Source: Dictyostelium discoideum (lineage: Eukaryota). Taken from it: a stretch of 64,000 nucleotides of DNA. Where the stretch lies: positions 2,016,001 through 2,080,000 of the forward strand of contig CM000155.2 of NCBI GenBank assembly GCA_000004695.1, read 5' to 3'. Positions 35,528 to 36,080 of this stretch are shown here, one piece after another (position 1 is the first letter of the stretch; every line of letters starts with the position of its first letter). Position numbers and translations under genes: made by a program. The notes beneath the pieces are model-generated. The model ran no database searches. It had not been told where the DNA came from and worked only from the letters and a program-made list of their open reading frames with translations.

Positions 35528-35571
35528 GAAACTTTCTATTTAAATGAGTAAAAGATGACAAAGAATTAATA

Positions 35572-35806
35572 ATGGATGGTGTCGAAATTGTAAAAAAAAT
35601 CAATTAAAAATAGTGCAATTGAAAAAGTATTTGGTATAGTTGGTGTACCACATATGAATTACAAGCACAAGGTTTTGGATTTTTTGGATTTCGTAATGAA
35701 CAAAGTTGTAGTTATGATGATGCAGGTTTACCAGGATTTTGTATGACAGTTAGTGGTCCTGGTGTAGTTCATGCATTGGCAAGTGTATTTAATGAGTAAA
35801 AGATGA
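35572..35806 (+). pseudogene. Degenerate N-terminal fragment of a thiamine-pyrophosphate enzyme, 2-hydroxyacyl-CoA lyase (HACL1)-like, with a frameshift and an internal stop
   Basis: Reading across frames gives MDGVEIVKKI(N*)..SAIEKVFGIVGVPH, then a frameshift, then LQAQGFGFFGFRNEQSCSYDDAGLPGFCMTVSGPGVVHALASVFNE*. This resembles the HACL1 N-terminal TPP domain ([50 protein letters not shown]), but about 10 residues are missing and the frame is broken. It covers only the first ~100 aa. It is flanked by 20-bp direct repeats at 35543..35562 and 35801..35820. Confidence 0.6.
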
Positions 35807-36080
35807 CAAATAATTAATATATTTACATTTTTGAAAAAAAAAAAAAAAAAATGGTTTCTTTGAAAAACAATATTTTAAATTATTTTTGTTTTTTTTTTTT
35901 TTTTCTCCACATTAATTAAAAAAAAAAAATTAACAATTTGTAAAGAAAAATAAAAAAGATTTTTTTATTTTTTTTTATTTTAATTTAAATTTCTCCTAAG
36001 AGATGTGATAATTAAAAAAAAAAATTTTAAAAAAAAATTAAAAAAAAAAAAAAGGCGGGAAACTATAACTCACTCATACA

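Follow-up and report, generated by a model that had tools for sequence, protein, structure and literature searches.

Between the genes for a DUF6010 protein and DNA ligase IV, Dictyostelium discoideum AX4 carries a piece of the 5′ end of hacl1 which, judged by its alignment with the intact parent gene, is a dead pseudogene fragment of ordinary type with an unusually traceable origin. The anatomy of its two junctions suggests that the hacl1 5′ end was probably copied and pasted into this site in a single event of repair or replication-fork restart, which duplicated the target site.

A fragment of hacl1 lies upstream of lig4

The DNA that we analyzed is a 64-kb stretch of D. discoideum AX4 chromosome 6 (hereafter, the window). 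The fragment and its surroundings comprise the following features:

35005..35160, minus strand: first coding exon of the gene for a DUF6010 (PF19473) protein of 135 aa, the divergent upstream neighbour, with its ATG at 35160
35478..35526, plus strand: homopolymer of 49 T (T49), ∼10 nt before the site of insertion
35572..35794, plus strand: hacl1-derived pseudogene fragment, identified by DNA alignments with the parent, tblastn and Pfam
36081..39347, plus strand: lig4 (DNA ligase IV, 1088 aa), the downstream neighbour, outside the insertion

A preliminary description of this DNA had placed an HACL1-type TPP-enzyme N-terminal remnant between lig4 and a “four-TM gene,” which is the DUF6010 gene, and this identification is borne out by protein comparisons. 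After repair of two frameshifts, an 80-aa peptide from the fragment scores 31.1 bits against Pfam TPP_enzyme_N (PF02776; cut-off 26.8, E=2.2e-7), the match covering only profile positions 1-85 of 119. In tblastn, HACL similarity extends over 35582-35650 (frame +2) and 35662-35793 (frame +1), and no further HACL similarity was found elsewhere in the 64 kb. The fragment region also forms an island of 26-37% GC in intergenic DNA that otherwise has roughly 8-18% GC. An Rfam search returned no match. Elsewhere in the window, the ORF at 25708-26289 looks like a piece of a multi-exon or frameshifted gene.

Protein searches with the repaired 80-aa peptide returned only short matches (<140 aa), the best of them being the AX4 gene model DDB_G0292762; the parent was reached via a search of representatives, followed by a search with P0050 as query. 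These searches identified the parent (P0199/P0402) as HACL1_DICDI, the product of DDB_G0292402, which agrees with the earlier proposal of a decayed, nonfunctional and direct-repeat-flanked hacl1-type fragment captured from elsewhere. DNA alignment shows that the fragment corresponds to nt 1-253 of the coding sequence, or codons 1-84 of 580, of D. discoideum hacl1 (DDB_G0292402, Q54DA9), where ∼100 residues had been proposed. Of the 253 nt copied, 223 nt now remain, with ∼96% identity to hacl1 over alignable positions. The fragment is closer to D. discoideum hacl1 than to its D. firmibasis, D. cf. discoideum and D. purpureum orthologues, and it has the D. discoideum state at all sites that set this gene apart from its D. 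firmibasis or D. cf. discoideum counterpart. The literature yielded nothing useful on Dictyostelium hacl1.

The parental protein (P0199) has PF02776, a central PF00205 and a C-terminal PP-binding PF02775. In the fragment, the N-terminal TPP-binding (Pyr) domain is incomplete, PF00205 and PF02775 are missing, and stops interrupt every reading frame. Since it retains 84 of 580 codons with two frameshifts, and neither the central nor the C-terminal TPP domain, its product is predicted to have no enzymatic capacity.

Comparison of exon boundaries with the parent does not support the capture of a first exon, as had been suggested: parental exon 1 is 474 nt long, and the copy stops mid-exon, at nt 253. 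Because exon 1 runs on to nt 474, the sequence AATGA/GTAAAAG at the end of the fragment, which had been read as splice-donor-like, is not a parental exon boundary, and its GT is target sequence. The copied 253 nt are wholly exonic, the first parental intron lying at CDS nt 474, and because the copied segment thus contains no intron, DNA and RNA or cDNA templates are not told apart by the copy itself.

The flanking repeat is a target-site duplication

The fragment is bordered by two copies of a direct repeat:

35537..35571, plus strand: left copy of the target-site duplication (TATTTAAATGAGTAAAAGATGACAAAGAATTAATA), single-copy in L015 and L017
35786..35819, plus strand: right copy of the target-site duplication (TATTTAATGAGTAAAAGATGACAAATAATTAATA), contiguous with the right flank in empty sites

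The window contains just two exact copies of the 20-mer AATGAGTAAAAGATGACAAA, at 35543-35562 and 35791-35810, with 0 copies expected from shuffles. The preliminary description had rightly reported an identical pair, but had put the second copy at 35801-35820 and had taken the exact 20-mer for the whole repeat, which in fact spans 32 nt (35540-35571 vs 35788-35819; 94% identical, spacing 248) or, if one indel is allowed, ∼35 nt (35537-35571 vs 35786-35819). The left copy, whose 20-mer had been placed ∼30 bp before the pseudo-ATG, ends at 35571, immediately against the parental ATG at 35572. The repeat abuts both ends of the fragment, and the native right flank follows directly after the right copy.

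We compared the syntenic loci of nine other Dictyostelium assemblies. The fragment and its two repeat copies are found only in four D. discoideum sequences, namely the window and loci L013, L012 and L016. Their two closest outgroups, D. cf. discoideum and GCA_054859235.1 (loci L015 and L017), have an empty orthologous site with a single repeat copy, as would be seen with a repair-mediated or templated insertion. In L015, a single 20-mer (1 mismatch) joins the left flank to the right in one contiguous stretch, and L017 has the same arrangement plus an 18-nt deletion; the repeat and the right flank are contiguous in these empty sites (TATTTACATTTTT / AAAAGATTTCTT). Given that empty sites hold one repeat copy and fragment-bearing assemblies two, the repeat is a duplication of the target site, and not the trace of a tandem duplication. 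Both of its copies carry C in L012/L016 and both carry T in AX4, a common state that needs gene conversion or parallel mutation.

No HACL similarity was detected at the syntenic position in D. citrinum, D. firmibasis or L009. The D. citrinum intergenic region consists of 2.3 kb of unrelated non-coding DNA in which we found no match to the 20-mer within 3 mismatches and no alignable site, so that this species is uninformative for the empty-site comparison. A T-rich tract occupies the same position in the empty-site genomes as T49 in AX4, and the length of the T49 tract differs among assemblies; it may be a fork-stalling or fragile tract.

Junction microhomology points to copying from a distant, inverted donor

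The donor has been retained. A full-length, intact hacl1 lies on the same chromosome in inverted orientation, 152.6 kb away in GCA_054883475.1 and about 146 kb away in GCA_054859355.1. Microhomology between donor and acceptor is present at both junctions. On the entry side, the last 8 nt of the left repeat copy (AATTAATA) are identical to the 8 nt just 5′ of the parental hacl1 ATG, and the last 11 nt of the right copy (AATAATTAATA) match the parental 5′ flank. On the return side, the start of the right copy, TATT(T)AATG, overlaps the end of parental homology (parent TATTAAATG), giving an imperfect 3′-junction microhomology, TATT/AATG, of 4-9 nt. Among random junction pairs, matches of at least 8 nt arose in 0.5-1.1% of trials and matches of at least 11 nt in 0.2-0.5%. 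The left junction reads AATTAATA/ATGG in AX4 and AATTAATGATA/ATGG in L012/L016, and its original form is thus not fixed to the base.

Based on these junctions, the event would have started with the repair of a break, or the restart of a stalled fork, beside the long poly(dT) tract. There, a 3′ end with the terminal sequence ...AATAATTAATA would have paired with the identical 8-11 nt just 5′ of the hacl1 ATG, DNA synthesis would then have copied about 250 nt of hacl1, and the new strand would have gone back to the original locus through pairing of TATT(A)AATG with TATTTAATG, at a point ∼30 nt upstream of its departure. This offset or, equivalently, the fill-in of a roughly 30-nt staggered break would account for the flanking duplication, all within a single event. 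Such a scheme fits either an SDSA-type repair-mediated duplication or an MMBIR/FoSTeS-type template switch. We infer it from junction anatomy only, and chance alone produces AT-rich microhomologies at 0.2-1% of junctions, which is not rare.

The fragment appears to decay neutrally and differently among isolates

Relative to its parent, the fragment shows ∼8 substitutions overall besides 3 indel lesions, where one frameshift and one stop had been counted before. The indel lesions are as follows:

35589..35598, plus strand: lesion 1, parental ATAGCAAAA changed to GTAAAAAAAA; +1 nt and 3 substitutions, frame shifted
35650..35651, plus strand: lesion 2, site where 13 nt (parental ATTACACCAATTG) are deleted; frame shifted
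35717..35722, plus strand: lesion 3, ATGATG in place of 24 parental nt, net -18

Lesion 1 is the AX4-lineage version, and L012/L016 have a different deletion at this place. Lesion 2 is specific to the AX4 lineage, the missing bases being still present in the wild isolates L012/L016. Lesion 3, which removes about 6 codons of the SYAASIVGYLTG region, is common to all fragment-bearing isolates, and is thus either old or made at insertion. Between AX4 and L012, the fragment is 87% identical and the flanking intergenic DNA 74-86%, the lig4 core is 96.3% identical, and the parental hacl1 segment shows a single difference in 253 nt in the same assemblies. The fragment has decayed at about the same rate as the adjoining intergenic DNA and differently in each isolate, which suggests neutral decay; part of the lesions may stem from error-prone synthesis at insertion instead of later decay.

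The annotated gene DDB_G0292762 is probably spurious

The fragment overlaps an annotated AX4 gene:

35544..35799, plus strand: AX4 gene model DDB_G0292762 (Q54CS0, 45 aa), judged spurious

The model comprises a first exon of 4 nt (ATGA, 35544-35547), an intron (35548-35665) and a second exon (35666-35796) followed by the stop codon (35797-35799), which is the only combination that reproduces the annotated 45-aa protein. Its splice donor is the GT of the left repeat copy and hence target sequence, and its product scores 20.5 bits against TPP_enzyme_N, below the cut-off of 26.8. This low score, together with the changes in L012/L016 and the newer annotations described below, suggests that DDB_G0292762 is probably an annotation artefact.

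A functional fragment, be it a real 45-aa gene, a lig4 promoter module or upstream ORF, or the source of a regulatory RNA against hacl1, is something to which we give hardly any credence. The annotation in AX4, the retention of the fragment in each of the four D. discoideum sequences that we compared and its position 262 nt upstream of the lig4 ATG could speak for a function. They are set against the loss of the start codon of the model in L012/L016, where ACG stands in place of ATG and a TAG interrupts the frame, against isolate-specific indels and a divergence like that of the flanking intergenic DNA, and against newer annotations, which call no gene at this position; our literature search found no mention of DDB_G0292762. 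As for the promoter sequence that the fragment had been thought to donate to lig4, relatives that do not have the fragment keep both lig4 and a conserved proximal block containing GGCGGGAAAC.

Alternative origins of the insertion

An RNA template is the alternative with most in its favour, and we consider it unlikely. Here, a partial hacl1 transcript or cDNA would have served as a patch at a double-strand break, or would have been reverse-transcribed in trans by a non-LTR retrotransposon enzyme, yielding a class 1 or class 2 templated sequence insertion. This reading would account for a wholly exonic copy that begins within 8-11 nt of the ATG, for the target-site duplication and for a donor that is a transcribed gene, and templated insertions at breaks in human cells are mostly RNA-derived (PMC5110952). 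However, class 1 events have a poly(A) tract and signal adjoining the duplication, and class 2 events have no target-site duplication (PMC5110952). The hacl1 insert has the duplication, but ends in ...GTGTATT/TAATGAG with neither a poly(A) tract nor a non-templated A run at its 3′ junction; the nearest A run is an A19 from 35835, outside the duplication. It is truncated 3′, mid-exon, rather than 5′, and the microhomology at both junctions fits strand annealing. Moreover, tRNA genes are the usual target of Dictyostelium TRE elements, and the 64-kb window contains no tRNA gene.

Capture by a transposon (Pack-MULE/Helitron-like), or by an unknown element cutting with a 30-nt stagger, would explain the flanking target-site duplication, a classic signature of transposition, but is highly improbable given that all sequence between the repeat copies aligns to hacl1, with no extra element sequence, no terminal inverted repeats or other element termini between the duplication and the captured DNA, and no hairpin. 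Donor microhomology at both ends would also be unexpected for transposase-mediated integration, and we know of no described Dictyostelium element family that a 30-35-nt duplication matches. Since we found neither poly(A) nor an inverted terminal repeat, and no tRNA gene in the neighbourhood, the retro- or transposition-mediated capture envisaged in the preliminary description loses its footing. So does a local tandem duplication, also raised there, whose probability we regard as close to negligible: a ∼248-nt unit (repeat plus fragment) would have been doubled, and the second unit later nearly all deleted, leaving 32 nt. Although direct repeats 248 nt apart could arise in this way, the arrival of hacl1 sequence at the site would still be unexplained, and at least three events would be needed instead of one. 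The model is contradicted by a repeat that is native target DNA, single in L015 and L017 with the same flanks, and by the native right flank directly after the right copy; the donor is not adjacent, but ∼150 kb away and inverted, and the repeat does not come from a duplicated donor segment. We also tried and rejected a circular-DNA (eccDNA) model, which needs a donor-derived repeat: the 20-mer is native to the target, and the donor loci have no match to it with fewer than 5 mismatches.

Discussion

The copy-and-paste origin that we favour has its closest counterpart in repair-mediated duplications, in which ectopic chromosomal DNA is captured at double-strand breaks by SDSA (Pace, Sen, Batzer, Feschotte 2009, PLoS Genet; PMC2671141). 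In primates, these have mean lengths of 162-302 bp and microhomology of 2-9 nt, a subset has target-site duplications of 4-21 nt, and two-thirds of the donors lie under 3 kb away (PMC2671141). The hacl1 insert shares with them a short ectopic copy (223 nt remaining of 253), a donor that is kept, often on the same chromosome, the absence of poly(A), junction microhomology, a target-site duplication and an empty orthologous site. It differs in its microhomology of up to 8-11 nt, in a donor ∼150 kb off and in its duplication of 30-35 nt, which exceeds the 4-21 nt of the primate cases and counts against the repair-mediated scheme. In addition, it comes from a social amoeba with a 78% AT genome, and it consists of the 5′ end of a protein-coding gene that was mis-annotated as a gene.

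MMBIR/FoSTeS denotes microhomology-mediated template switching in replication or break-induced replication (Osia et al. 2021, PMC8421209). As in this process, the hacl1 insert has microhomology at both switch points and a donor on the same chromosome in inverted orientation; a return upstream of the departure point would yield a duplication flanking the insert, and error-prone synthesis could explain some of the internal indels. Templated insertions of the MMBIR/FoSTeS kind were reportedly described by Hastings et al. in 2009 and by Lee et al. in 2007. Unlike somatic, cancer- or disease-associated cases, ours is a fixed germline event in a haploid protist, known from sequence alone, and it consists of one simple insertion, not of a complex rearrangement.

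Templated sequence insertions (TSIPs), for which an RNA origin is favoured, fall into class 1, with poly(A) and a target-site duplication, and class 2, with microhomology and without the duplication (Onozawa and Aplan 2016, PMC5110952). The hacl1 insert combines a class 2-like microhomology with a class 1-like target-site duplication, which at 30-35 nt is longer than typical. It thus departs from class 1, as it has neither poly(A) tail nor poly(A) signal, and from class 2, as it has the duplication. Among duplicated (non-processed) pseudogene fragments and gene relics, partial tgrB/tgrC fragments have been reported in Dictyostelium genomes (PMC12745789). These relics are likewise partial, frame-broken and unconstrained copies of functional genes in D. 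discoideum-group genomes, whereas the hacl1 fragment is an isolated insert with defined junctions outside any hypervariable gene cluster, and its donor is a single-copy metabolic gene.

One could go further and imagine a recurrent, Dictyostelium-specific pathway (a nuclease or replication restart with ∼30-nt staggered ends) that seeds gene fragments genome-wide and is marked by the long duplication and T49 or, separately, an insert that is transcribed from the lig4/DUF6010 promoter region and feeds hacl1-matching RNA to the RNAi machinery. Both ideas are very improbable and we disfavour them, as neutral decay and a single known case speak against each. No new kind of system emerges from the insertion, and we saw no sign of an effect on lig4.

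What the finding brings is, at the simplest level, a correction of the annotation: DDB_G0292762, the “uncharacterized protein” of 45 aa in UniProt (Q54CS0), would be a hacl1 pseudogene fragment and not a gene. It also provides a clean natural case from an amoebozoan with a very AT-rich genome, in which not only the donor and the two junctions but also the empty site and alleles that decay independently have been recovered. The isolate-specific lesions offer a small yardstick of neutral evolution in D. discoideum, showing GC-richer DNA as it erodes to intergenic composition. Finally, if the proposed origin is right, copying by break repair or template switching can scatter pieces of genes over about 150 kb in this organism.

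A decayed copy of the 5′ end of hacl1 upstream of lig4

The intergenic region analyzed here lies between two divergently transcribed genes:

start at 35160, divergent neighbour: DUF6010 gene
36081-39347, downstream neighbour: lig4, 1088 aa

Between two copies of a direct repeat in this region, we found a GC island of 26-37%, surrounded by intergenic DNA of roughly 8-18% GC. Three-frame translation of the island starts with DDKELIMDGVEIVKK, moves one frame on for SIKNSAIEKVFGIVGVP and returns to the first frame for ELQAQGFGFFGFRNEQSCSYDDAGLPGFCMTVSGPGVVHALASVFNE; the frame-repaired 80-aa peptide matches the Pfam domain TPP_enzyme_N over profile positions 1-85 of 119 (31.1 bits, threshold 26.8). 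Searching the whole window by tblastn with HACL N-termini gave matches only at 35582-35650 and 35662-35793, showing that only an N-terminal piece is present; its codons correspond to 84 of 580, and the central and C-terminal TPP domains are missing. Along with the alignment to parental DNA described below, these results bear out the preliminary description of a decayed HACL1-type N-terminal piece between repeats.

Dictyostelid HACL1 proteins were collected by an exhaustive representative search and a follow-up search. The parent protein, which the preliminary description had proposed to look for, was identified as D. discoideum HACL1_DICDI (P0199/P0402; Q54DA9, DDB_G0292402), with the N-terminus MDGVEIIAKSIKNSAIEKVFGIVGVPITPIAYELQAQGVGFFGFRNEQSCSYAASIVGYLTGLPGLCMTVSGPGVVHALAGVLNA. 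Using hacl1 DNA from two comparison loci (L001 and L006), we aligned window positions 35572-35794 to nt 1-253 of the hacl1 coding sequence, with three lesions.

Lesions of the fragment relative to hacl1
35589-35598: ATAGCAAAA changed to GTAAAAAAAA, +1 nt
35650/35651 junction: ATTACACCAATTG lost, -13 nt
35717-35722: 24 nt replaced by ATGATG, net -18 nt

Besides these lesions, about 8 substitutions, mostly non-synonymous in the fragment, separate it from its parent (about 96% identity at alignable positions). At every unambiguous substituted site, the parent state is also that of the orthologues from D. purpureum, D. firmibasis and D. cf. discoideum, indicating that the changes arose on the fragment. 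At sites that differ in the parent gene of D. firmibasis or D. cf. discoideum, the fragment has the D. discoideum state, so that the template was hacl1 of the D. discoideum lineage. The fragment had been thought to end at a parental exon boundary, yet it stops at nt 253, in the middle of an exon 1 of 474 nt (the intron begins at L001:5475).

The flanking repeat is a target-site duplication

The 20-mer AATGAGTAAAAGATGACAAA occurs as two exact copies in the 64-kb window (35543-35562 and 35791-35810), with 0 expected from shuffles; the preliminary description recognized the pair but placed the second copy 10 nt off, at 35801-35820. The full repeat extends over 32 nt (35540-35571 vs 35788-35819, 94% identical, spacing 248), or about 35 nt if one indel is allowed (35537-35571 vs 35786-35819). 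Since many species have the very same 216-aa protein at the downstream neighbour Mob1B, nine syntenic loci could be obtained, which we ranked by lig4-core identity to the window.

Syntenic loci and their lig4-core identity to the window
L013, GCA_054883475.1 (assembly also of L003 and L006): 100%
L012, D. discoideum: 96.3%
L016, D. discoideum: 96.2%
L017, D. cf. discoideum: 94.7%
L015, GCA_054859235.1: 92.3%
L014 (D. citrinum) and L011: about 88%
L010, D. firmibasis: 86.3%
L009: 84.6%

Of the window and these nine loci, just four (the window, L013, L012 and L016) have the hacl1 fragment with two repeat copies. L015 reads T(n)GAAACTTTTTATTTAATGAGTAAAAGATGGCAAATAATTTATATGTTTAAAAAAAAGATTTCTTAG, in which a single repeat copy, its 20-mer bearing 1 mismatch, joins the left flank directly to the right one, and the L017 empty site is arranged in the same way but with an 18-nt internal deletion (GGAAACTTTTTATTTAATTAGTAATATTTTACATTTTT). 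These single-copy empty sites indicate that the repeat is a genuine target-site duplication, created when the hacl1 piece was inserted. Sequence comparison dates the insertion to after the D. cf. discoideum split and before the D. discoideum isolates diverged.

Both repeat copies read ACGAG in L012 and L016 (L012:11750/12003 and the L016 equivalents) and ATGAG in AX4 (35545 and 35793), and the single L015 copy is ATGAG, as in AX4. A C in both L012/L016 copies versus T in AX4 and L015 would need conversion between copies or parallel mutation; such conversion would act across the 250 nt that separate the two 32-nt repeats.

Junctions suggest a templated insertion from a distant donor

At the left junction of AX4, the target ends with ...AATTAATA. 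The right repeat copy reads ...AATAATTAATA, having T, as in the single L015 copy, where the left AX4 copy has G, and the donor carries an identical AATAATTAATA directly before its ATG. Microhomology at this left junction is 8-11 nt, and the exact ancestral junction is uncertain, AX4 and L012/L016 differing there by GAT. At the right junction, the donor sequence is GGTGTATT/AAATGCT and that of the L015-type target TTTTTATT/TAATGAGT; the AX4 sequence GTGTATT/TAATGAGT is exactly the chimera predicted from the two, with microhomology of 4 nt (perfect) or 8/9 nt (imperfect). When random junctions joining the donor locus to this intergenic DNA were simulated, matches reached at least 8 nt in 0.5-1.1% of trials and at least 11 nt in 0.2-0.5%; a chance origin of two junctions with such microhomology together seems unlikely.

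The simplest account would be insertion by one event, whose mechanism we infer from the sequence as follows. A 3′ end at ...AATTAATA would prime on the donor just 5′ of the hacl1 ATG, the primed strand would copy about 250 nt of hacl1, and the new strand would re-anneal about 30 nt 5′ of the point it had left, giving rise to the duplication; in an equivalent version, the duplication would result from filling in a roughly 30-nt staggered break. A T49 tract (35478-35526) precedes the insertion site by 10 nt, and empty-site genomes also have a T-rich tract at the corresponding place. Such tracts are plausible sites of fork stalling or breakage. The length of T49 varies among assemblies, the window and L013 being about 12 nt apart.

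Fragment and donor were located in two assemblies:

GCA_054883475.1, ~1,053,400-1,053,620, + strand: fragment (L003)
GCA_054883475.1, same contig, ~1,206,246, - strand: hacl1 ATG (L006)
GCA_054859355.1, ~2,576,898, + strand: fragment
GCA_054859355.1, ~2,723,100-2,723,370, - strand: hacl1

The donor, intact in both, is thus inverted relative to the fragment, at a distance of 152.6 kb in the former and about 146 kb in the latter. The donor loci lack the 20-mer, which excludes models with a donor-borne repeat, including a small circular intermediate that carried it from the donor.

The fragment is decaying and shows no sign of promoter function for lig4

The best protein match of the fragment is [quoted passage not shown] (P0001, 45 aa, UniProt Q54CS0). 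Only one exon combination reproduces this product (ATGA at 35544-35547, intron 35548-35665, exon 2 35666-35796 plus stop), so that the splice donor of the model is a GT within the left repeat copy, after a 4-nt first exon. The product scores 20.5 bits, under the Pfam cut-off, hence its "uncharacterized" label. A literature search on the locus tag DDB_G0292762 returned no paper mentioning it, and newer annotations call no gene at the fragment.

In L012 and L016, the ATG of this model is ACG, and GGA TAG gives an in-frame stop. Both loci still have the 13 nt lost in AX4 and carry lesions of their own, namely 5′ deletions (ATGGATG-GATTGATCAATT), a 4-nt insertion and, at the right junction, one of 3 nt, as well as 9-10 substitutions different from those of AX4; the only lesion in common is the 24-to-6/7-nt replacement. 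Between AX4 and L012, the fragment is 87% identical, comparable to flanking intergenic DNA at 74-86% and far short of both the lig4 core (96.3%) and the parental segment, in which 1 of 253 nt differs between these assemblies. We take this as evidence that the fragment is dead, and that its decay, neutral and isolate-specific, contradicts a functional gene or element.

The insert ends 262 nt 5′ of the lig4 ATG and had been proposed to donate promoter sequence to lig4. We found nothing suggesting this: the proximal block with GGCGGGAAAC (36054-36063) is conserved in all species aligned, whether the insert is present or absent. GGCGGGAAAC lies about 20 nt 5′ of the lig4 ATG, and is also seen at L004:3979-3988 and at the lig4-proximal end of L012-L017; it is kept in all aligned Dictyostelium loci, while the intergenic DNA around it is not. 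GGCGGGAAA reads on the opposite strand as the classic E2F site TTTCCCGCC, and GGCGGGAAAC may serve lig4 as a promoter element linked to the cell cycle or to DNA repair. Another block, AAACCCACCACCAAATCATTATTCCTTATTT (~35331-35362), about 170-200 nt 5′ of the DUF6010 ATG, is conserved among D. discoideum-group loci, and D. cf. discoideum (L017) has it twice in tandem; it may likewise be a promoter element.

In D. citrinum, the same intergenic region (L004:1880-3660) contains about 1.6 kb of extra DNA (29% GC, every frame interrupted by stops), and then an (ATT)n stretch of about 190 nt. Nothing in the window matches the extra 1.6 kb, which does not resemble HACL either, indicating that the region independently gained unrelated DNA in another lineage. 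In L011 the region measures 1503 nt and includes a 104-aa gene call (12065-12379). Elsewhere in the window, several ORFs on both strands of 27498-30540, some of them fragmentary, have cytochrome P450 signatures (e.g., PFGTGPRNCM and PFGLGNRVCLG) and could represent either two paired P450 genes or additional gene fragments. On the minus strand at 25400-26290, the sequence beyond the stop of a 193-aa ORF with many charged residues still looks coding, in another frame, which could be due to a frameshift, an intron or an artefact of sequencing.

Alternative origins and known classes of insertion

An RNA/cDNA patch or retroelement-mediated copy retains some plausibility because the copied segment has no intron, but is disfavoured by the absence of poly(A), by truncation at the 3′ rather than the 5′ end and by microhomology at both ends. 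Capture of the hacl1 piece by a transposon is unlikely, given the lack of both element sequence and terminal inverted repeats, and a local tandem duplication, put forward in the preliminary description, is contradicted by the empty sites.

A one-event templated insertion has counterparts elsewhere. Repair-mediated duplications by SDSA capture are short inserts (means 162-302 bp) that leave the donor in place, show 2-9 nt of microhomology, occasionally come with a target-site duplication of 4-21 nt and have empty counterparts in sister species (PMC2671141), and the hacl1 insert matches these as well as templated insertions of the MMBIR/FoSTeS type (PMC8421209). Templated sequence insertion polymorphisms fall into class 1, with target-site duplication, and class 2, with microhomology and no poly(A) (PMC5110952); the hacl1 insert combines all three traits. 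Compared with the events in these groups, its duplication is longer (30-35 nt) and its donor farther away (about 150 kb). Dictyostelium genomes are already known to hold partial gene fragments, e.g., at the tgrBC locus (PMC12745789). Given this likeness to known classes and to known Dictyostelium fragments, we assign the hacl1 insert to an already known kind of event.
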